Origin: Aulosira sp. ZfuVER01
GTDB lineage: Bacteria; Cyanobacteriota; Cyanobacteriia; Cyanobacteriales; Nostocaceae
Direction: 5' to 3'
Length of the DNA: 64,000 nucleotides
NCBI GenBank assembly: GCA_034530615.2
Contig: JAVRCV020000068.1
Span: 79,393 to 143,392 of the forward strand
Positions within the stretch are counted from its first letter, which is position 1; every line of letters starts with the position of its first letter. The translations under genes were made by a program, and so were the position numbers. The notes under the pieces were generated by a model. It saw nothing but the letters and a program-made list of their open reading frames with translations. It did no database searches and was not told the DNA's origin. Positions 8,137 to 23,548 of the stretch are shown in pieces.

Positions 8137-8748
8137 TTATTTAAACCTGATTTGATTTGCTTGTAGGTAAACGATTTGGTTTTTTAATCCTTGAGCTTCA
8201 GTAGCTGTTAAACCCTTCCATTGCTGCTGTGCTTGTTTTACACTAGGCACTGGTTTGAGTACGCCTGCTAGATCTAGAGTCTGTCCTTTTTTGACAACAA
8301 TTTTGTTTTCAGCAGTTCCTGCATCTAAATTGGGAGCTAAAACCACGAATACTCGTTGAGTATTACTTGAACCAACCCAAAAAGTGCGATCGCCTACTAC
8401 ACTTTGAACGTTCACATTTGTAAACTGCACTGGTCTATTTACCAGTGTCTGTTTGTTAGCATTGGTAATTAATAATACGTCCGTTATTGGTTCAGTCTGA
8501 ACAATAGTTGTCACTTGTGGGCTTGGGGTGACAACAACGGTAGTTGTTGGCTGTGGCGTAGCAGTAACGGTAACTGTTGCTTGTGGTGTAGGAACGACAA
8601 CAACATCAGGTTGCTTCGGCTCGGGAACACAAGCAGTAATTACACTACTAAATAGTGTTAAAATCGTTACTTTACCAAGCCAAGACTTTGTACTAATAAG
8701 ATTACTATAGCTTTGTATGATGTTTAAAGCGTACTTATGACTATGCAT
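8137..8748 (-). CDS. Putative lipoprotein with Pro/Thr/Val-rich linker
   Basis: Lipobox-like ITAC followed by PTPQ repeats. Confidence 0.65.
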   Translation of the reverse strand: MHSHKYALNIIQSYSNLISTKSWLGKVTILTLFSSVITACVPEPKQPDVVVVPTPQATVTVTATPQPTTTVVVTPSPQVTTIVQTEPITDVLLITNANKQTLVNRPVQFTNVNVQSVVGDRTFWVGSSNTQRVFVVLAPNLDAGTAENKIVVKKGQTLDLAGVLKPVPSVKQAQQQWKGLTATEAQGLKNQIVYLQANQIRFK

Positions 8749-8972
8749 TTTACTATTAAGATACTTAATACTAAGTTGATTTAACTATTAAGGCTTTTAG
8801 CATTTGAGACTTATAAAAATCCTAAGCCTAGATGCTCCAGGCGCAGAATAAAAGCTGGTATTACCTTAATATGCTTACTTTAAATAATAAGAAGATAATT
8901 TCGCTTCTATCTAACGGAATAATATCAAAGCAGAGACTATTCCAGTATTTTTGTGTAGTGCGATCGCGCTGC

Positions 8973-10979
8973 TCAGTTATGATGAAAATGTTTTTGTAAC
9001 ATTACCAGCCAGGCTTGAATAGCAGATTTTAATCTTGCTCTTTCAGTTTCTTTAATACCTTGAGGATCGAAGCGATCGCGGTAATGCAGTTCAACTAGCG
9101 ATGTCAAATCAGCAATTAAATCTGAGCTAGGTAATTCTTCTTCCAGTCTCTTGATCCAGTTTTTTAAAGACTCTGAAGGATGACGGCTTAAACCTAACTC
9201 TTGTAACCTTTTTTCAATTAAATAAAATTCATAATCTCTTTTATTTACATCAGATTTTGCAACTTGTTTAGTTAATATTTGTTTCGTAGATAAACGGCGA
9301 ACTTGATTCTTAGAATTAAACTTCCACAACCGCAGAAATATTAATGGCAAAATCAGCCACCATCCATATTTAAATAGATTGCTAACTAAACTAGAACGTA
9401 ACCAGCCTGAGAGTTTGAAACTAAAAAACGACCATAAATCAGAGATAAATGCTAATTTAGAAGCATTTGCATTCTCAATACTTGTCCAATCAGCAGGTGT
9501 GGTGTCAAAAGCTTGCCATCTACCATTTATATATGCCAATGTCCAAGCATGAGCATGGCGGCTACGAACTATGTATTGGTTCTCTAATTGGCTAAATTCG
9601 TGAACCGAATACCCTACAGCATAACGCGCTGGTATACCCGCCGCCCGTAAAAGCAGTGTGGTTGCAGTGGCAAAATATTCACAGTGTCCAGCGCGAGTTT
9701 TCAATAAAAATGTTGATAAAGGTGTTGACTGATTGTTTTTACCTGTAAGTTTCAAAGAATAACGAAAATTTTTAATCAAAAAGCTATCCACACGTTCTAA
9801 AATTGCTTGGGGCGATTTTCCTGTAATATCTAGTTGCCTAATAATTTGGTTTACTGCTTCTCTTTCTGATTTGGCTATTTGCAGATCGTCTTCTGTTGGT
9901 GGGCTATCCAAAGAAAGACTTTTATTAAATAAGATTCGGTAAGCGATCGCATCAGTTTTTCCCTCTACTTTCACCGTACCATATTTATTTTTCTCCATTT
10001 GGCTGACTGGTAATTCTTCAATTTCAAATGTTCCGTCAGCTAGCCTTAACAAGCCTTTACCTTGATTAAGGGTTGCAGAAATCGTAAGTTTTGAGCTATT
10101 GCCTGAGTTATTGCCTAAACGCCAACTCTTACCATTAATCTCAGGTTGTACAGGAGTAAAAGTAGAATTTGATGCCACCCAAAAAGCAGATTTATATTTA
10201 TCATAAGTTGCTTCTTTTAGCAGCCCGGGAGCAACTTTTTGACTATCAGCAGCAACTCGAAAAATAATCTCATTTGACTGTTTTAATGTTCCAATCTCAC
10301 CGATACTAGTTTGCTTTGTTGTTGAGTCTGTTAGTTGTCCAATACTGTTATTATTGCTTAACCATGCAACAACCGTATCTTCTAACTTCTGTTGTAGATG
10401 ATATACACCTATTTGTCCTATAAATCCCATAATTCCAGCAAGCAGAATGAGACTCAGCCAAATACCAGGTGAAAATCGTTGCGATCGGATATACCAAAAG
10501 GCAATACTTGTCAGTAAAAACATCCCGATATAAAAAGATATATCCCTAGTATTAGCGACTCCAGCAGATAAAATACAGAGAGCAAAATAGGGATAACCTA
10601 AACTAATAATGTAGCTGTTTGATTCTGCTTTAATGAGATTTTTTAATGATACAAAAAGTGTGCGAATATCAATACTTTCATTTACAGAGTATGTTTGAGC
10701 AGCCAGCAGGGGAAAAAATACTAATGGAAACCACTGCAACAGAGTATAAACTAAGTAAATTGAGCGTTGAGTAGTTAAAAGAGAAACAAATACAATAATC
10801 AGAATCATCAAACACAGATTAGCAATGCGTCGGAAATCATCAGGGGAGAAATCCCAACGCGAGTTAATCAAGCGATATCCTGATAAAATCGCAGCCATTG
10901 GTATGGCAAAAATCCACATTCCTGTCTGCCAACCCCAAAAGATTAAAGCAGCACTCAGGAGAAGCACTGGCGCTTTCAT
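8973..10979 (-). CDS. Transglutaminase-like membrane protein (TgpA type)
   Basis: Multiple TM helices; GHCEYFA, HAW and FDTTP catalytic-triad motifs. Confidence 0.88.
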   Translation of the reverse strand: MKAPVLLLSAALIFWGWQTGMWIFAIPMAAILSGYRLINSRWDFSPDDFRRIANLCLMILIIVFVSLLTTQRSIYLVYTLLQWFPLVFFPLLAAQTYSVNESIDIRTLFVSLKNLIKAESNSYIISLGYPYFALCILSAGVANTRDISFYIGMFLLTSIAFWYIRSQRFSPGIWLSLILLAGIMGFIGQIGVYHLQQKLEDTVVAWLSNNNSIGQLTDSTTKQTSIGEIGTLKQSNEIIFRVAADSQKVAPGLLKEATYDKYKSAFWVASNSTFTPVQPEINGKSWRLGNNSGNSSKLTISATLNQGKGLLRLADGTFEIEELPVSQMEKNKYGTVKVEGKTDAIAYRILFNKSLSLDSPPTEDDLQIAKSEREAVNQIIRQLDITGKSPQAILERVDSFLIKNFRYSLKLTGKNNQSTPLSTFLLKTRAGHCEYFATATTLLLRAAGIPARYAVGYSVHEFSQLENQYIVRSRHAHAWTLAYINGRWQAFDTTPADWTSIENANASKLAFISDLWSFFSFKLSGWLRSSLVSNLFKYGWWLILPLIFLRLWKFNSKNQVRRLSTKQILTKQVAKSDVNKRDYEFYLIEKRLQELGLSRHPSESLKNWIKRLEEELPSSDLIADLTSLVELHYRDRFDPQGIKETERARLKSAIQAWLVMLQKHFHHN

Positions 10980-12325
10980 ATATGCATTAGTTCCTCTTGT
11001 ATTTTTCCCAACTTCAAAAAGTGTAATTTTGTTATTTGATCGTTCATATAATCTGAATCAAACTTATCTAATTTACCTTCCTTATCTGTAACGATCAAAA
11101 CTAAAGTATGGATACCCATACTCTTGAGATAATTAACTAATCTTTTCCTATCTTCGTCCCAACAAAGAAATATACATATACAGCCACTCAACAAAGATAG
11201 TTTCTCCAGCACTACTGGAATAATAGAATCAAAAGATTTATCTCGACAGGCAACAACAGATGCGAGAATTTCTAGCATTTTGTCAGTATGGCTCAGTCCT
11301 CTGCCAAAGGTAAAACAATAAGCTTCATTACCAACAAACATCAAATCTAATAATGATTCTTGGGTTTGAACTTCACAAGCTAATGAAGCCGCAATTGATA
11401 TTGCTTCTTCTAAAATTTCGCTATAATTCACGCTTTGAAATGTATCTAAAATCAATGCGTGTCGAACAAAAAACTCATCTTGTTCTTCTTTGACAATTGG
11501 CTTTCCAACTTTTGCCCAGCTTTTCCAGTGAATTTTTCGCAGCGAATCTCCCAGACGATAATCGCGTAAAGACCTAAATTCCTCTGAATCACCTACAGAA
11601 GAGGCTAACGCCACACCACCAGATTGATGTTTCTTGACACCTGGAAGTTGAACTGGTGGCAGTTGATATAACTTAGGTAAAATCAATAAAGATTGGGGTA
11701 AAGAAATACTTTTACACGCTTTAAAAAGTCCAAAAGGATCGGGTCTAGCTACTGTCATACCCGTAATCCGAATAATACCTCTTTGAGTAGGTATGATTTC
11801 ACCAATAACTTCAGTTTTGCTATTTGGTACAAGGGGAGGTAAATCTATTGGTAAAGCGTTACCACATTGTTTGCGAGAAATTAACCACAGCCAACGATTG
11901 TATCCCAAAGAGCGAACAAATGAATTATGCCGAACTTTTCTATTTTCAAATGTTTCTATGAAATCCTTAAAACTTGGGCGAGGGTCAGCAAAATTTTCAA
12001 ATATTTTTAGTCCTTTTTGGATTTTGTCGCTTTTGTTATGAATTACAATTTTGTACTTCAGTTTTACACCCACAGTTGCGAATTGGGGTAGATTGCGATT
12101 AGCACTAAAATGATAGCGAAACAGCAAGCTTGAAACTACAGATATGATGAGAATAGATAGCAGAAAAGTGACTATCTGATAGTTCATGCTTTCATTACTA
12201 GAACCAGTTAAAGCGGCTGCGATCGCTATTACTGAAACAACCACGCCACTAACAGTAACTCGTCTGCTTAGTTTGCGGTGAATACCATAACTGAAATAGA
12301 AAAGACGATAGATAAAAAGTTTCAT
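10976..12325 (-). CDS. DUF58 protein
   Basis: EFRSLRDYRLGDSLRKIHWKSWAK motif; lies between moxR and the transglutaminase gene. Confidence 0.88.
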   Translation of the reverse strand: MKLFIYRLFYFSYGIHRKLSRRVTVSGVVVSVIAIAAALTGSSNESMNYQIVTFLLSILIISVVSSLLFRYHFSANRNLPQFATVGVKLKYKIVIHNKSDKIQKGLKIFENFADPRPSFKDFIETFENRKVRHNSFVRSLGYNRWLWLISRKQCGNALPIDLPPLVPNSKTEVIGEIIPTQRGIIRITGMTVARPDPFGLFKACKSISLPQSLLILPKLYQLPPVQLPGVKKHQSGGVALASSVGDSEEFRSLRDYRLGDSLRKIHWKSWAKVGKPIVKEEQDEFFVRHALILDTFQSVNYSEILEEAISIAASLACEVQTQESLLDLMFVGNEAYCFTFGRGLSHTDKMLEILASVVACRDKSFDSIIPVVLEKLSLLSGCICIFLCWDEDRKRLVNYLKSMGIHTLVLIVTDKEGKLDKFDSDYMNDQITKLHFLKLGKIQEELMHI

Positions 12326-12340
12326 CTTTCACGTTTGCTA

Positions 12341-13303
12341 TCAAACTGGAACAGGAACAGATTTGAGGATATCTTCAACAACACTGGTGGCGGTTCTACC
12401 AGAGAAACGCGCTTGCGGTTCCATAACAAGGCGATGAGCAATTACAGATACCGCAAGTTCTTGGATATGTTCTGGCGTGACAAATTCATAGCCATCAAAC
12501 AAGGCTAATGCTTGAGCAATCTTCATTAAAGCAATAGATGCTCTGGGGCTAGCTCCTAATTGCACGCCTTGGGCAGAACGAGTAGCATTGACAATATCTA
12601 CAAGGTAGGTTTTCAATTCCTGAGAAATACGAATTTGTCTGACCTGCCGTTTTAAAGTAATGATGTCCTGCAAGTCAATGCAAGGTTGAATTATATCAAT
12701 AGGGTGCTGTTGGATTTGGTCTGAAAGCAGGTTAACCTCGTCTTCCGGCGATATGTATCCCAAACTAAACTGAAGTGCAAAGCGATCCATTTGGGCTTCT
12801 GGAAGAGGATAAGTACCACGGGATTCCACTGGGTTCTGAGTGGCGATGACAAAAAACGGGTCTTTTAGTTTTCGCAAATTCCCATCAATGCTGATTTGAA
12901 ACTCTGCCATAGCTTCTAGTAGTGCAGATTGAGTACGCGGTGAAGCCCGGTTAATCTCGTCAGCCAAAACAATATGCGCGAAAATCGGGCCTTCGTGGAA
13001 ATGAAAGGTACGTTCGTTTGGGTCAAGCATCGAAATACCCAAGATATCCGAAGGCAAAAGATCTGGTGTAAATTGAATGCGCTTGAAACTTACATCTACA
13101 GAGTATGCTAGGGCTTTCGCTAAGGTGGTTTTGCCAGTTCCGGGATAATCTTCTAGGAGTACGTGTCCCCCACTAGCAAAGGCTGACAGCAATTTTCTGA
13201 TTGCTGCTGATTGCCCTTTTATAACCTTTTGAATGTTGTTAAAAATTCTTTGATAAATTTCTTTGCTGGGCAAATCATGAGGCTTCGGGTAAGAATTCTC
13301 CAT
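12341..13303 (-). CDS. moxR: MoxR family AAA+ ATPase
   Basis: PGTGKT, RIQFTPDLLPSD, DEINRA, ATQNP, YPLPEAQMDRF. Confidence 0.93.
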   Translation of the reverse strand: MENSYPKPHDLPSKEIYQRIFNNIQKVIKGQSAAIRKLLSAFASGGHVLLEDYPGTGKTTLAKALAYSVDVSFKRIQFTPDLLPSDILGISMLDPNERTFHFHEGPIFAHIVLADEINRASPRTQSALLEAMAEFQISIDGNLRKLKDPFFVIATQNPVESRGTYPLPEAQMDRFALQFSLGYISPEDEVNLLSDQIQQHPIDIIQPCIDLQDIITLKRQVRQIRISQELKTYLVDIVNATRSAQGVQLGASPRASIALMKIAQALALFDGYEFVTPEHIQELAVSVIAHRLVMEPQARFSGRTATSVVEDILKSVPVPV

Positions 13304-14905: not shown

Positions 14906-15997
14906 TTACTGGCATTCTTCTGGTGATGGTGTTTTTGGCAAAGATACAGTGGTGTTTTGTAAATTCTCTCGCAATAGCACTTTCAGTCGTTGATTATCTT
15001 CAGCAGCGATCGTTTCACCGTAGTGATGTTGCTGAAATAATTGGCAATAACGGTTTTGTTTAGCACAAATTAAACAACCGTAGGCATTATTACCATTTGC
15101 ACCGCATAGCCGATGTCCCATCACCGGGCCCAAGGAAATATTTTGCTCACTTGCAACTGTATTCAGGATGGAACGTAGCCGTGCTTCAAACTCCATTGAT
15201 AAAAACAGCTTACTTCCTGGTTTTGTACGATCCCATTGCGGCACAATTAATCCCTGTTTTAACAAACTCTCTTCAATTTCAGCTGACATAACAATGTTAG
15301 AGAGAATTACATGGTGGGTAACATTAGGCAAAAGTTTCCTTGCCAATTGCCACATTAAAGTCTCATCAAACCACTGTTCAACTAGAGGACGAAGATACCA
15401 ACAACAGGGAATGCCAAGGTTGACTAAATCTTGTAGCAGTTGTACTCGTCCCTGAATAGAGGCTTGCTCATATCCTGGTTTTAATGGTGGTAGACTAACA
15501 AAAACTGTGACTCGTAGGGAATTCGGTTGAGCTAAAGTAGCTTTGAGGCGCTCTAGAAATGATTTACCAGGGTGGACTTTGGTTGTAATGTAGACCATAT
15601 TCGCTGCTTGACGGTCAATCAGTGCATTCAAAATTGACAGTACACGTTCTCGATGCGCTGGGATAAAGGGATCGGAGTAGTCGCATAGAGAAATTGGAAA
15701 GCCATTTTGTCCCTCTGGAGTAGCAAAAATGCAGTCTAACAACCGATCGAGCAAGTCAGATGGAGCTAAAGTATTCTCAAAATTTTCTGGATGATGATGC
15801 CAGTCACGGTCTTGATGGCAGACACAATAAGCACATTCAACTGGACAACGGTTCAGGGTATTGGGTAGAAATGGATTCAGACTGAAGTATTTAACTGCAC
15901 GTTCTCGATCGGGAATTCCCAGTACAGGAAAGCCATGTAGCATATACTGACTCCCCTGTAATGAAACTTCAGACAGAGTAGATTGATAATTTGCCAT
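14906..15997 (-). CDS. Radical SAM superfamily protein
   Basis: CPVECAYC (CxxxCxxC) motif; SDPF and ITTK elements; extra C-terminal Cys cluster. Confidence 0.75.
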   Translation of the reverse strand: MANYQSTLSEVSLQGSQYMLHGFPVLGIPDRERAVKYFSLNPFLPNTLNRCPVECAYCVCHQDRDWHHHPENFENTLAPSDLLDRLLDCIFATPEGQNGFPISLCDYSDPFIPAHRERVLSILNALIDRQAANMVYITTKVHPGKSFLERLKATLAQPNSLRVTVFVSLPPLKPGYEQASIQGRVQLLQDLVNLGIPCCWYLRPLVEQWFDETLMWQLARKLLPNVTHHVILSNIVMSAEIEESLLKQGLIVPQWDRTKPGSKLFLSMEFEARLRSILNTVASEQNISLGPVMGHRLCGANGNNAYGCLICAKQNRYCQLFQQHHYGETIAAEDNQRLKVLLRENLQNTTVSLPKTPSPEECQ

Positions 15998-16216: not shown

Positions 16217-16855
16217 TTACAAATATAAGGATTGAACAGCCAGATCCTTTAAGGTAATGGTAAAGTTACGCTGCTCTTGTGTAGCAATGAATGCGATAGT
16301 TGCCTCACACGCCACAGCAACAGTTAACATCACCAAATTTCGCGCTAGAGGATAATCACAGACATCATCATTGACATCAGAAGGAACGCGATAAACATCA
16401 TTCCAAATTACTTCTGCATAATCGGCTGCTAGTCCAACATGAAGGCAGGGAATTTTTGAACGATCGGCATAATCTTTCACTGCTTGACGTGACAAGCTGT
16501 TGTCAAAAACATCAATAATTAACTGGCTATCTTGAAGTAGTTGATCTGCATTTGCTGATGTCAACTCCTTTGTTTTGGCATCAACTTTAGTACCAATTGC
16601 TCGGTATAAATTATTTGCTAGGATTTTCGCCTTAATTGCTCCAACATCGGAACGGTAGTAAGGCTGGGTAGAAAGGTTACGTTCCTCAATGCGATCGCGA
16701 TCGATTACCGTAAGTTTATCAAAACCAGACCGAGCCAAGTTTTCTGCAATGTTAGCTCCTAACGCTCCAGCCCCACAAATGGTTATAGGATAATTCTTGA
16801 GCTTTGCCATCACAGCATTGCTGCGGTAAAGCTGTTCGTGAAAAAAAATACTCAT
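16217..16855 (-). CDS. ThiF/E1-like adenylyltransferase
   Basis: GAGALG, DRDRIEERNLSTQ, KAK, DVFDN motifs. Start placed at MSIFF, 5 nt after the upstream stop. Confidence 0.9.
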   Translation of the reverse strand: MSIFFHEQLYRSNAVMAKLKNYPITICGAGALGANIAENLARSGFDKLTVIDRDRIEERNLSTQPYYRSDVGAIKAKILANNLYRAIGTKVDAKTKELTSANADQLLQDSQLIIDVFDNSLSRQAVKDYADRSKIPCLHVGLAADYAEVIWNDVYRVPSDVNDDVCDYPLARNLVMLTVAVACEATIAFIATQEQRNFTITLKDLAVQSLYL

Positions 16856-16860
16856 TGTCC

Positions 16861-17694
16861 TTACCACTCTTGTTGTTCCATCACAGCCACTAAAGATTGC
16901 AAATCAAAATCGCGATCGCGTCCACTCAAGCAAATCCCAGAACTAATTACAGTCAAATCAGATTTAGCGATCGCACTAGTGTGGCGAACACCATCAGCCG
17001 TTCTCCAATCCACTGTCCAGTAATCACCGCGATCGTGAAATTGGCGTAATTCACCGCCACCCATTCGCAATGCTTTTCTTAGCCGTTTTTCATCCTGTTG
17101 CGGTTGTGCAAATCCCTCAATCCGCTGAGTTGCTAATTCATACAATGTCCGGATTTCTGGAGTAATCCCTTTGAACTGTAATTCCTCAGCAGGAGTCAGT
17201 TGCTTAACAGCAGATTGCAGAGTTTCCACAATTGCTGGATCGGTACGGCGATCGATTTCCTCAAACCAGCAGGATTGTCCATTCCAACGAGCGATAACTT
17301 GCTCAAAAACAACACCCTCAGTTACTAGATGTACTGCGATCGGTTTGACTACCTTCAACCGTTGACGCATATCTACTTCATTCACAGGATATGCTAACCA
17401 AGTTTGTCCTCGCAGTTGGTGTGCTAATCTCAGCCGTATTTGGGGAAAGTGTTGCAAGTATTCTGCAATTTGGGGTAAGTCTGCTTCTTCCACAACTGTT
17501 GCTGTCTTCGTATCGACTGGCTGAAAGATACCCCAACCTTCAAATTGATTATGCTTTGGCGTAAAGGTGTAAACCATCCCAGCTACTCGTGTGCGAACTC
17601 GTCCACCTTTGACACAAGGGGCGATAAATTGAGTTGCACACAACTGTGCTTCTGCACTAGCAATTTGGTTGATTAGCTTACGGATGTCAGTCAT
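16861..17694 (-). CDS. Hypothetical protein, C-terminal SGICLSG (possible E2-like Cys)
   Basis: 277-aa ORF tightly coupled to the ThiF gene; family not recognised. Confidence 0.75.
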   Translation of the reverse strand: MTDIRKLINQIASAEAQLCATQFIAPCVKGGRVRTRVAGMVYTFTPKHNQFEGWGIFQPVDTKTATVVEEADLPQIAEYLQHFPQIRLRLAHQLRGQTWLAYPVNEVDMRQRLKVVKPIAVHLVTEGVVFEQVIARWNGQSCWFEEIDRRTDPAIVETLQSAVKQLTPAEELQFKGITPEIRTLYELATQRIEGFAQPQQDEKRLRKALRMGGGELRQFHDRGDYWTVDWRTADGVRHTSAIAKSDLTVISSGICLSGRDRDFDLQSLVAVMEQQEW

Positions 17695-17765: not shown

Positions 17766-17975
17766 TCCCGCGTGCAAGTTGGTGGAGCATTGCGTGTTCT
17801 CAGTTACTAGGGGGACTCCGCTGGTGAGTTGTTACACACTCTTTCAAAGATGGCTACTTTTAAGCCCATTTTCCAGGTTCTTCGCACTCCCCGTTCACAC
17901 ACGCCCACTGTATTTGACAGTGTTACTTTTCCTCTCGTACTAGTATGTAGGCTCCAAGAGTTAGGGCACGCAGGA
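17766..17975 (-). ncRNA. Scaffold RNA A: carries sarcin-ricin-loop mimic and 23S H42-44 mimic
   Basis: Terminal stem UCCUGCGUGC/GCACGCGGGA; CCUAAC/AACUU loop; CUAGUACGAGAGGA at 17943-17930; 56-nt GTPase-centre-like segment at 17876-17821. Confidence 0.85.
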
Positions 17976-18178: not shown

Positions 18179-19546
18179 TTGATGATGTCTGAAAATATAT
18201 ATTTCACAAAAAAAGGTAAATTTAGCCATGAGCTAGCATTGAACGATCTCAAAGAAATCCAAACTTCAGTCCGCTCAATCGCTAGTGAAAAACCTTTGAC
18301 GATGAGTCATACAAATTCAGATGGTGTATCAGAGGTTATTGAATTGACTGAATTGCCTTTAGATATTCTTCTTAACCAGAAGCAAAAACAGGTGGTATCT
18401 AACATAGCTAAGAGTTTTGCAAAAGGGAATAGCTTTGAAGAAAATGTTTCTAGTAATTTTATTTATGAAAAGTTTCTGAAATTACTAGCAAAAGAAAATT
18501 TTTATTTAGCTGATACATTTACTGTTTCTGATTCATTATCTCTTTTTGAAAATTTGAGGGTGATAATTGAGCAAGAAATTTCAACTGTAAAGCTGAATAT
18601 TATTACTGTAATTGGGGCATCTCTTAAGAAAGGCAATATCTGTGAAATTGGCTCAATTAAGTTTATGAATCCGTCGGACTTTATTGACAAGCATAAACTT
18701 TTGTTTGAGAGTCTTGTTAATTATAATGAAGGATTGCAAACTTATCTAGAAGTTTTTCATAAATCTGACTTAGTAGCACAGGTGAGCATTAAAAATAGGG
18801 ATACTGCTACATCTAAAATGGTAACAAATGAAATAATGAAAAGAATCTACACCCTTATTAGATTAACTATCCCAAGTAGTGGGGGACGATATAACTTTTT
18901 TGGGACTCTTGGTGAAGAATATTTAGAATCTAGATTTTCTTTCTTATTTCATACTGATTCAAGCAACGAAGAAATAGTAAAATCTATATCAGTTGAACGC
19001 ACAAGTAATCGGTTTTCAGATAGTAATATAGATTTAATAGAAACTATACTTCCTCATAAACAAGTAAATCAATGGTTTACTCGTATTGAGCTAATCATTA
19101 GTAAATTTGTTAATGATAAAAAATTAACTGATTTTGAAAAAAGGATATGGACAGCCCTTTATTGGTATGGAGAATCTATGTCAGAAAGAGAATTAAATCC
19201 TTTGATAATTAAATATGCTACTTGTCTTGAAGCATTATTTAATAGTCGTGAAGGTGGAATAAGTGAACAAATTTCTGAGTTTACTGCTTATGTGGTTGGT
19301 AAAAACAAAGATGAAAGGATGAAAGTCTACAGTAATATTAAGAAACTATACAGCTTAAGATCTACTGCTGTACACGGAGGCTCTGTTGTAGGACATGTGG
19401 ATAGTAATTTTCTATCTCAGATTATGTTAATATGCGAATCTGCATTGCTTCAAATGGCATATTATTCTCAAGAGGATTACTATCAAAATTCAAAAGGATA
19501 CGAAAAATTTGTGCAATACATTCTTAGAGAATATAGGTTTATTTGA
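18179..19546 (+). CDS. HEPN-domain (ApeA-like) ribonuclease
   Basis: C-terminal CLEALF ... LYSLRSTAVHGG (RxxxxH) motif; AT-rich; antisense to its neighbours. Confidence 0.8.
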   Translation: MMMSENIYFTKKGKFSHELALNDLKEIQTSVRSIASEKPLTMSHTNSDGVSEVIELTELPLDILLNQKQKQVVSNIAKSFAKGNSFEENVSSNFIYEKFLKLLAKENFYLADTFTVSDSLSLFENLRVIIEQEISTVKLNIITVIGASLKKGNICEIGSIKFMNPSDFIDKHKLLFESLVNYNEGLQTYLEVFHKSDLVAQVSIKNRDTATSKMVTNEIMKRIYTLIRLTIPSSGGRYNFFGTLGEEYLESRFSFLFHTDSSNEEIVKSISVERTSNRFSDSNIDLIETILPHKQVNQWFTRIELIISKFVNDKKLTDFEKRIWTALYWYGESMSERELNPLIIKYATCLEALFNSREGGISEQISEFTAYVVGKNKDERMKVYSNIKKLYSLRSTAVHGGSVVGHVDSNFLSQIMLICESALLQMAYYSQEDYYQNSKGYEKFVQYILREYRFI

Positions 19547-19610: not shown

Positions 19611-21185
<1,575 letters not shown>

Positions 21186-21301: not shown

Positions 21302-21702
<401 letters not shown>

Positions 21703-21731: not shown

Positions 21732-21861
<130 letters not shown>

Positions 21862-21866
21862 AAACT

Positions 21867-22653
<787 letters not shown>

Positions 22654-22716: not shown

Positions 22717-22860
22717 AATTCCGCACAAGTTAGCAAAGCAGTTTTCACAATTGCCTTTACCATTTTGGCTACGCTCCCATATAAGGGAGCGACAGGAATC
22801 GAACCTGCATATCCTTTCACAGATAGTGTGTGTATGCTTCACAAGTTAGGGCGCGGAATT
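22717..22860 (-). ncRNA. Scaffold RNA D: circularly permuted tRNA cargo (YrlA-like topology)
   Basis: Order is T arm GCAGG-UUCGAUU-CCUGU, loop-closed acceptor CGCUCCC-UUAUAU-GGGAGCG, UA, D arm GCCAAAAUGGUAAAGGC. Confidence 0.85.
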
Positions 22861-22876
22861 AAATCTTAAATGTTTA

Positions 22877-23055
22877 CCATGCAAGTTCAAGAAGCTTTTT
22901 ACAACTACGGTCGCTCTTACCAAATATTGGCAGTGGGCACGCACGCTAAATCTGCAAGAGACTTAGAAATCATGCTTCGCTGGTTCGATCGCTCGAATTT
23001 TACTACCTTAGGGCCGTTATCAATGTGTATGTATGCTTCTTGTGTTAGGGCACGG
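22877..23055 (-). ncRNA. Scaffold RNA E: permuted 23S rRNA H67-H71 (H69) mimic cargo
   Basis: AUAACGGCCCUAAGGUAGUAAAAUUC at 23020-22995 and GGUAAGAGCGACCGUAGUUGUAA near the 3' side, inside the scaffold arms. Confidence 0.8.
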
Positions 23056-23068
23056 ATGATTAGGCGTA

Positions 23069-23339: not shown

Positions 23340-23548
23340 TGGATCTGATCGGGATTGAACCGATACCCTCCCTGTGAGAGTTGCACTCACACCTCATGCG
23401 AGTTGAAAAAGCTGTGGTAACACACGCAGGAATCGCACCTGCACTTATCGTTTAAAAAGCGATCGCTCTACTATTGAGCAAGTATGTAAGCTTCTTCTGT
23501 TAGGGCACAAGTGAAATCCGGGATCTCTACCGTTAGAGCTACAGACCC
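23340..23548 (-). ncRNA. tRNA-like shell with its anticodon loop replaced by scaffold RNA F
   Basis: Acceptor GGGUCUG/CAGAUCC-A, D arm GCUC-UAACGGUA-GAGA, T arm AUCGG-UUCAAUC-CCGAU. Confidence 0.75.
23393..23511 (-). ncRNA. Scaffold RNA F: tRNA-Lys(UUU)-like cloverleaf cargo
   Basis: CUUGUGC/GCAUGAG stem, CCUAAC/AACUC; D arm GCUC-AAUAGUA-GAGC; anticodon loop UUUUUAA; T arm GCAGG-UGCGAUU-CCUGC; internal ACCA. Confidence 0.8.

Follow-up and report, generated by a model that had tools for sequence, protein, structure and literature searches.

A probable Ro60-associated, Y-RNA-like molecule of cyanobacteria that copies the sarcin-ricin loop and the GTPase-associated centre of 23S rRNA

Bacterial Y RNAs are modular molecules. 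In the part of the work of Chen et al. (2014, PMC4201824) covered here they are described as a stem which holds the site for the protein Ro60, joined to a second module which in YrlA mimics tRNA, and a Y RNA is reported to tether Ro60 to PNPase. The same part of that paper gives lengths of 80-130 nucleotides (nt) and, for YrlA and YrlB, the 5' motif GNCGAAN0-1G. Here we report on a structured RNA of 206 nt at 17768-17973, minus strand, of a 64,000-nt stretch of DNA from the cyanobacterium Aulosira sp. ZfuVER01 (contig JAVRCV020000068.1, positions 79,393 to 143,392; called the window below, to which all coordinates refer unless stated otherwise). Compared with the YrlA/Yrn1 family (Rfam RF02553), as far as the covered part of PMC4201824 describes it, this RNA is alike in lying beside a predicted Ro60/Rsr gene, often with several such RNAs per operon, in having 5' and 3' ends that form a stem, and in carrying a separate module that mimics an RNA of translation.

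The module copies two sites of 23S rRNA, the sarcin-ricin loop (SRL) and the GTPase-associated centre formed by helices H42-44. In 23S rRNA these sites are more than 1,400 nt apart, and together they form the translation-factor docking site of the ribosome. That an SRL and GTPase-centre mimic is present in a Ro60-associated, Y-like RNA we regard as very probable. The sequence-only reading of this DNA that preceded our work had recognised both ribosomal likenesses and left the RNA unplaced; its placement as a Ro60-associated, Y-RNA-like molecule changes which mechanism is the most likely.

The sarcin-ricin loop and GTPase-centre copies

The minus strand at 17943-17930 reads CTAGTACGAGAGGA, as part of the longer reading ...GAGCCUACAUACUAGUACGAGAGGAAAAGUAAC... 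in the window. Its core, AGUACGAGAGGA (17930-17941), comprises the bulged-G motif and the GAGA tetraloop and presumably corresponds to about positions 2654-2665 of E. coli. With one mismatch allowed, the 12-nt core AGTACGAGAGGA was found only once on the two strands of the window, against 0.09 occurrences expected from 100 shuffles. Since the genome of the strain has no assembled 23S rRNA, the rRNA operon of a same-genus genome was used as reference (its 23S rRNA at L031:288-3112), and the 13-mer TAGTACGAGAGGA is identical to positions 2578-2590 of the rRNA extracted from it. Sequence and coordinates of the SRL core thus hold as first read. The motif begins, as had also been proposed, where the "cargo" starts, directly after a 5' segment (ending UACAUACU) common to the sister RNAs described below, and the placing of SRL and GTPase-centre mimic in one RNA of about 210 nt agrees with our finding of both inside the 206 nt.

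The core is conserved. A BLAST search with 236 nt against 61 relatives gave full or near-full copies in 27 genomes, and the core is exact in 25 of the 26 full-length aligned copies, the remaining one (L026) having a single G-to-A change; the 27th copy (L017) lacks the 5' half. A second search, of species-representative genomes, used a pattern confined to H44 and the 3' end, so that the SRL cannot aid retrieval. At least 120 stretches were obtained, and the 80 loci fetched are the basis of all counts out of 80 below. Upstream of the pattern the exact 12-mer is present in 77 of them; two others have single substitutions (AGTATGAGAGGA in L074 and AATACGAGAGGA in L071), and L095 is without the 5' half. 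Conservation in homologues, on which the sequence-only reading had made its claim depend, was accordingly found in loci collected without reference to the motif. When 100 copies were aligned to the model, 95 had the exact core and 5 differed from it by one base, and positions 33-43 of the RNA (AGUACGAGAGG) are the longest run of at least 97% conservation in the whole molecule. A chance origin is excluded because the motif is conserved in homologues, and we conclude that selection maintains it as a true copy of the sarcin-ricin loop.

The copy of H42, H43 and H44, with the L10/L11 site, extends over 17811-17892. Within it, 17821-17876 is aligned by Rfam to positions 1179-1234 of the archaeal large-subunit (LSU) rRNA model (56 positions; 39.9 bits, E 4e-10, which is below the gathering score of 50), and positions 87-155 of the RNA share 51 of 70 nt (73%) with H42-44 of the reference 23S rRNA. 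The SRL core lies 55 nt upstream of the LSU-aligned stretch. A blastn-short comparison with 23S rRNA gave nothing above chance beyond H42-44 and the SRL, the similarities of the 9-mer UGAACGGGG and of GGAGUCC having E values of 3-9.

The secondary structure was derived with RNAalifold and a refined covariance model, R2; the RNA of the window scores 240 bits with this model and its predecessor R1. It is composed of a terminal stem, in which both ends pair around a CCY bulge and an AA/UU step, then a GAGC/GCUC helix, the SRL hairpin, a small hairpin of 5 bp, a stem P2, a long H42 which retains the G·G-containing internal loop of the rRNA, H43 and H44. In the alignment of 100 copies (97 distinct sequences), which is fitted to the model and so favours the structure, 94.9% of cells are paired, compared with 30-46% for slid partners, and 25 of 54 pairs have compensatory changes; none of 500 shuffles reached the observed values. 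The terminal stem is made by the 5' chassis (GUGCCCUAAC ... GAGCCUACAUAC, 17943-17973) and the 3' chassis (GCUCC..CAACUUGCACGC, 17768-17791). Its helices 1-3, with the internal loop or bulge present, are 91.6-98.5% paired with compensatory changes in 6 pairs, and the H42-44 copy (helices 8-11) also covaries. The minimum-free-energy (MFE) fold of the window RNA alone has the same architecture.

For the SRL hairpin (17924-17945) the MFE fold predicts a UACU/AGUA stem, a 4+4 internal loop and a C-G pair closing GAGA, which is the canonical secondary structure of an SRL. The tetraloop-closing pair is C-G in 96 of the 97 distinct rows and U-G in one. The stem, helix 4 of the model, is 94% paired (UA/UG, AU, CG and UA), three of its four pairs being without compensatory change, and isolated compensations are visible by eye in the alignments. 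Two other pairings were rejected. The pairing of UAC with the GUA of the SRL core, given by RNAalifold, involves invariant, uninformative columns and was replaced by the SRL hairpin in R2, and an acceptor-like pairing UACAUAC/GUGUGUG, as in the tRNA-like sisters, has a 3' strand which varies without compensation in the 206-nt RNA. The sequence-only reading had further suggested that a helix UACUAG/CUAGUA, with a second CTAGTA at 17810-17805, could mask the SRL. This helix can form (91.9% of cells) and has no covariation, 257 of 500 shuffles reaching its value. A divergent subgroup (including L022, L025-L027, L074, L096, L100, L105, L121 and L134) lacks the distal 3' partner of this helix and retains both the SRL and the local partner, and in Nostoc the helix is neither supported nor excluded.

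Every named locus among the 80 is cyanobacterial, and the genera represented include Nostoc, Microcoleus, Tolypothrix, Calothrix, Fischerella, Okeania, Symploca, Coleofasciculus and Desertifilum. When a sample of 151 genomes from across the phylum was searched with the covariance model, full-length copies (at least 150 bits) were found in 11, and none in the sampled genomes of this phylum outside the class; the low-scoring matches L047-L051, from other cyanobacterial classes, are genuine pieces of 23S rRNA and were discarded as family members. No family in Rfam 15 covers the RNA. Three variants were observed: one at L052 9964-10233 with an insertion of about 60 nt in the 5' strand of H42 and the SRL core kept, one of 319 nt with a large insertion (L094 663-981), and a second, divergent SRL RNA (within 1939-3853 of L046, G048 contig 20) between a stand-alone vWA gene and a gene for a TlyA-type rRNA 2'-O-methyltransferase.

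Expression was considered from RNA libraries of separate studies, in which all contigs come from relatives, the present strain being in no run. Three contigs lie wholly inside the RNA: X3 (172 nt, word depth 167.6) at 17793-17962, X4 (153 nt) at 17812-17959, and X1 (167 nt, from a run that may be DNA) at 17794-17960. No differences are listed for any of them in the SRL core. These short contigs hint at an abundant, discrete RNA in the relatives. A consensus promoter and terminator scan gave nothing at the ends of the RNA, with 16 promoter-like sites compared with 16.3 expected.

The Ro60 orthologue, sister RNAs and neighbouring genes

The gene at 19611-21041 on the minus strand codes for a protein of 476-477 amino acids (aa) with a predicted TROVE ring and vWA domain; the listed open reading frame (ORF) of 522 aa is over-extended, since orthologues start at MNTAERDL (21041). 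Public annotation of this protein says only "vWA domain-containing protein" or hypothetical. A single-sequence search matched a TROVE-domain structure (entries 9kop and 9l5y, the latter named by Foldseek as Thermus phage phiLo Ro60). A profile of 60 diverse relatives, of which 15 are matched by the Pfam family vWA_Ro60, was compared with the PDB and found human Ro60 (E 6e-18), Xenopus Ro60 (2.7e-14), phage Ro60 (1.8e-13) and Deinococcus radiodurans Rsr (7.8e-8). The AlphaFold2 (AF2) model of the 477-aa protein has a mean predicted local distance difference test (pLDDT) value of 92.3, and its top 12 Foldseek matches are all Ro60/Rsr over the full length, with TM-scores of 0.60-0.71. Judged by profile and predicted fold, the product is a Ro60/Rsr orthologue, highly divergent from the named Ro60s.

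This gene accompanies the RNA widely. Neighbour counts were made with tblastn (E ≤1e-6, coverage of 50% or more), and flanks longer than 8 kb on each side were available for only 54 of the 80 loci. A Ro60 gene was found no more than 10 kb from the RNA in 46 of 80 loci, and in 44 of these it shares the strand of the RNA. Among the 61 relatives 35 have the gene, including all 27 with the RNA, and the RNA is present in 0 of the 26 without it, which is to be read as a pattern rather than a statistic.

Five more sites on the same strand of the window are matched at low score by model R1. They share with the 206-nt RNA, which we call A-type, the 5' end GUGCCCUAAC..AGCYUACAYAC and the 3' end GCU..AACUUGCAC, and differ in their inserts. 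The sister RNA at 21102-21175 (20.5 bits) has an insert of 22 nt; this 74-nt, chassis-only RNA lies inside the over-extended 5' end of the listed 522-aa ORF. The one at 21735-21858 (39.7 bits) has a tRNA-Leu(UAA)-like insert, found by ARAGORN and by the tRNA model (48.6 bits), and the one at 23392-23512 (26.1 bits) a tRNA-Lys(UUU)-like insert (tRNA model, 51.1 bits). ARAGORN and Rfam call both as tRNA genes. They are probably tRNA-like Y RNAs rather than ordinary tRNA genes, and genome annotations may miscount such chassis-embedded molecules. The RNA at 22719-22858 (31.5 bits) has a YrlA-like, permuted tRNA-like insert with a partial match to the Rfam YrlA model (23.1 bits, E 0.073, below gathering). 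Finally, the insert of the RNA at 22875-23057 (17.4 bits) copies part of 23S H69-71: it contains AUAACGGCCCUAAGGUAGUAAAAUUC, in which 23 of 26 nt match the 23S rRNA of the relative (E 1e-4), and an insert class of this type, 128-135 nt long, recurs in other loci. This RNA is a second rRNA mimic.

A regular-expression search of the window and the 80 loci gave 209 chassis RNAs in these 81 sources, divided into 67 with SRL and GTPase centre, 64 with a T-loop, 10 H69-71-like, 26 short and 42 others, many of the last looking tRNA-like or H69-71-like by eye. Model R1 made 166 matches in the 80 loci, 84 of them of the SRL (A) type and 82 lower-scoring others.

In loci of Nostoc type the order is a 239-aa protein, an L7/L12 paralogue, Ro60, the RNA, a 277-aa protein and a ThiF-like E1. 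The L7/L12 paralogue (21302-21694, minus strand) is the second L12 gene of the genome, in which there are two PF00542 loci, and has the Pfam N- and C-terminal L12 domains. The housekeeping L12 is encoded on contig C48 together with rplK and rplJ, and the paralogue shares 49% identity with it. Both the L10-binding N-terminal domain and the factor-binding C-terminal domain of the paralogue are conserved, and in place of the Ala/Gly hinge it has a charged linker. From the conservation of its N-terminal domain, the paralogue may dock on L10.

The 277-aa gene (16861-17694, minus strand) begins 73 nt downstream of the RNA and belongs to no known family: it had no match in Pfam, NCBIfam or PADLOC and no usable match in the ESM Atlas, and its AF2 model is poor, with a pLDDT of 49.5. 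It is found downstream of the RNA in 37 of 80 loci, 35 times on the same strand, at a median distance of 209 nt. Overlapping it is a ThiF/E1-like adenylyltransferase gene (16217-16867, minus strand; Pfam ThiF 1.7e-27, with partial E1-E2 matches in PADLOC), present in 29 of 80 loci. The 239-aa gene (21867-22586, minus strand), within the RNA array, is likewise without a match in Pfam, NCBIfam and PADLOC and occurs in 25 of 80 loci, always on the strand of the RNA.

Other lineages have other neighbours. Genes for PARG were found in 13, for an AAA ATPase in 9, for NADAR in 8 and for KptA in 6 of the 80 loci. Those for PARG, NADAR and KptA are mostly no more than about 2.5 kb away, and they have the orientation of the RNA in every case for PARG and NADAR and in 4 of 6 cases for KptA. 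The median distance from the RNA is 178 nt for NADAR and 255 nt for the AAA ATPase. Loci of Microcoleus or Oscillatoriales type have the RNA between genes for a microbial PARG and NADAR, and other loci have the RNA followed by KptA/Tpt1 and an AAA ATPase of 400 aa. The flanking by PARG and NADAR suggests a link to the reversal of nucleic-acid ADP-ribosylation. In several non-Nostoc cyanobacteria (L037 (G040, 8156-10838), L038, L131, L121 and others) PARG, preceded by a gene of about 210 aa and no family, the SRL RNA and NADAR lie on one strand.

Between Ro60 and the RNA, on the plus strand opposite to both, lies an ORF of 455 aa and no family (18179-19546), in which RSTAVH near the C-terminus fits, by eye, what we take to be the Rx4H motif of HEPN RNases. 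A 363-aa ORF (14906-15997, minus strand) has CPVECAYC (CX3CX2C, radical-SAM-like by eye) and no Pfam match. Both are placed outside the system because a close relative has neither of them at its syntenic locus, and the 455-aa ORF is an insertion. The genes for a MoxR AAA_3 ATPase and a DUF58 protein (10976-13303, minus strand), 3-5 kb downstream, accompany the RNA in just 1 of the 80 other loci and are probably unrelated to it.

Possible function

The mechanism we prefer, tentatively and with some doubt, is that the RNA acts as a decoy or sentinel. The chassis, that is the stem of paired ends, would be the Ro60-binding part, and the insert the effector module, a miniature of the translation-factor docking site made of the SRL hairpin and H42-44, which may be recognised by the proteins that recognise the factor-binding site of the ribosome. 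Bound to Ro60, the RNA would offer this pseudo-site as a surrogate target, which in some genera would carry L11, L10 and the L7/L12 paralogue encoded in the locus. It would then attract enzymes that attack or repair the real site, such as SRL nucleases, glycosidases and H44 ADP-ribosyltransferases, and Ro60 together with PARG, NADAR, KptA/Tpt1, the AAA ATPase and the ThiF-like E1 with its 277-aa partner might process or signal the damaged RNA.

This mechanism is favoured because both sites are attacked by toxins, because removers of ADP-ribose, a 2'-phosphotransferase and an extra L12 are encoded nearby, and because sister RNAs copy tRNAs and H69-71. According to the covered parts of the respective sources, Tre23 ADP-ribosylates H44 and lowers the GTPase activity of EF-G (PMC8661411), SRLase1, assisted by EF-Tu, cuts the SRL (bioRxiv 10.64898/2026.09.18.752725), and one plant ribosome-inactivating protein needs the L12 stalk for its action on E. 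coli ribosomes (PMC12737465). The earlier suggestion of a decoy for SRL-targeting toxins or a bait for translational GTPases fits the context of a Ro60 orthologue, an L7/L12 paralogue and PARG, NADAR and KptA, and of its two parts the decoy is the one we carry forward as preferred. The combined statement, a selected SRL and GTPase-centre mimic in a Ro60-linked, Y-like RNA which serves as surrogate target, seems to us almost evenly poised, inclining to the doubtful side. One may speculate further that in filamentous cyanobacteria a set of bait RNAs is organised around Ro60, their common scaffold displaying those RNA sites of the translation machinery that are attacked most (tRNA bodies, H69-71 and an SRL and GTPase-centre pseudo-site dressed with a dedicated L7/L12 paralogue), and that ribotoxins of phages or competitors strike the bait, Ro60 recognises the damage and linked enzymes reverse it or respond to it. 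Such an innate immune sensor based on RNA mimicry is, taken jointly, rather unlikely.

A number of observations weigh against the surrogate-target reading and the identity on which it builds. Binding of the RNA by Ro60, binding of proteins by the insert and damage to the RNA are steps that we infer. No Ro60 gene lies within 10 kb in 34 of 80 loci, only 54 of the 80 having more than 8 kb on both sides, and the relatives are not independent, so that the co-occurrence counts overstate the support. No more than 10 of 80 loci have the L12 paralogue near the RNA and a minority have the ADP-ribose enzymes there, and for L10 and L11 the genome has a single gene each and no paralogue. The GNCGAA motif that the covered part of PMC4201824 gives for YrlA and YrlB is absent as such, the RNA reading GCCCUAAC (GUGCCCUAAC at the 5' end), and the Rfam YrlA model has no match on the 206-nt RNA at E up to 10, only a sister RNA being matched partially; because of these two points the RNA is filed, on its sequence, as Y-RNA-like and not as a member of YrlA. 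The folding energy of the whole RNA is unremarkable (z -1.33). The SRL closing stem is nearly invariant, with only 2 compensatory cells, in the last UA pair, and a test of folding energy with swapped flanks was weak (3' flanks exchanged among 37 distinct flank pairs, its value equalled by 150 of 2000 permutations), and for these reasons the SRL fold is compatible with all data and is not demonstrated by covariation. The expression contigs, moreover, come from relatives only, and the ends of the RNA cannot be read from them.

The main rival keeps the identity of the RNA and dispenses with toxins. The insert would bring L11 and L10-(L12 paralogue)n, and thereby EF-G, EF-Tu, IF2 or other GTPases, to Ro60, making the RNA a tether or regulator in quality control of the ribosome or its stalk, or in the titration of factors under stress. 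The tether between Ro60 and PNPase (PMC4201824, in its covered part) is a precedent, the binding of isolated SRL RNA to EF-G and IF2 is reported in the covered part of PMC3496166, and the link to Ro60 and an L12 paralogue in the locus with conserved L10-binding and factor-binding domains are in line with it. A tether leaves unexplained, however, why PARG, NADAR and KptA recur as neighbours and why sister RNAs copy other toxin-prone sites such as tRNAs, and it leans on a paralogue found near the RNA in so few loci, with putative binding; we consider it unlikely, if worth serious attention. Bulged-G or loop-E modules recur in many RNAs, and the AGUACGAGAGGA hairpin might be such a generic bulged-G and GNRA block, which serves the tertiary fold of the RNA itself or binds a protein (Ro60 or another) and does not mimic H95 functionally. 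The flanking stem does differ from that of 23S rRNA, the 3' side of the motif reading GGAA where the relative's 23S has GGACC. Yet the identity with the universal H95 core runs over 12-13 consecutive nt, the four tetraloop bases among them, which are invariant in 95 of 100 copies, and a copy of H42-44 in the same RNA with sisters copying tRNA and H69-71 makes mimicry the common theme, so that a generic block is quite improbable.

Leaders of ribosomal-protein genes that mimic rRNA are known, and by analogy with the rplJ (L10) leader the H42-44 copy could act in cis, autoregulating the downstream 277-aa/ThiF, NADAR, KptA or AAA gene. A same-strand gene follows shortly after the RNA in many loci, at the median distances given above, and there is no terminator-like site after the RNA. 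Against such a leader, which we hold to be very improbable, the downstream gene changes between lineages and the RNA does not; the RNA is closed on itself by a covarying terminal stem common to free-standing tRNA-like RNAs; the contigs from RNA libraries end inside the RNA and do not run into the gene; and an SRL is unnecessary for the binding of L10. A position in the 5' untranslated region (UTR) of rplJL itself was ruled out, as rplK, rplJ and rplL are on contig C48 and the genes downstream of the RNA are unrelated. Both pieces being rRNA-like, one could also think of debris of rRNA genes, a functionless pseudogene chimera. Here the SRL precedes H42-44, which is not the order in 23S rRNA, many cyanobacterial genera have conserved the RNA with compensatory changes, it is framed by a chassis common to other RNAs, and it is present in RNA libraries, which leaves this explanation a negligible chance.

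Comparison with known systems

The purpose of tRNA mimicry by bacterial Y RNAs is open, and the RNA described here gives a testable idea, that Ro60 ribonucleoproteins present surrogate sites of translation RNAs. If this is true, RNA mimicry extends from tRNA to functional centres of rRNA, and the biology of Ro60 becomes linked to the reversal of RNA ADP-ribosylation through PARG and NADAR. The analysis also identifies a widespread cyanobacterial "vWA domain protein" as an orthologue of Ro60 that has an entire family of partner RNAs lacking annotation, and the RNA may offer a minimal natural construct for studying how factors and ribotoxins recognise the SRL and the stalk. In Rfam 15 and the literature searched, no description was found of an rRNA- or SRL-mimicking Y RNA or of a cyanobacterial Ro60 RNA; Burroughs and Aravind (2016, NAR 44:8525) and the supplements of PMC4201824, with cyanobacterial YrlA candidates, lie outside this coverage and could bear on novelty.

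Compared with H95 and H42-44 of 23S rRNA, the SRL core agrees in all of its 12-13 nt, and the H42-44 copy has 73% identity and the same, covarying helices. In contrast to 23S rRNA, the two sites, which are cut from domains VI and II, stand 55 nt apart in reversed order with a junction foreign to rRNA, and the SRL stem has only 3-5 A/U-rich pairs. The leader of rplJ is likewise an extra-ribosomal RNA that copies the L10/L11 binding region; it is the 5' UTR of a ribosomal-protein operon and has no SRL, whereas the RNA here is self-closed, linked to Ro60 and upstream of unrelated genes. From YrlA/Yrn1, as described in the covered part of PMC4201824, it differs in that the module copies rRNA (SRL and H42-44) and not tRNA, and in its length of 206 nt compared with 80-130 nt. 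A Y RNA with a mimicry module is thus a known kind, and an rRNA-mimicking module which unites the sarcin-ricin loop with the GTPase centre we read as a new one.

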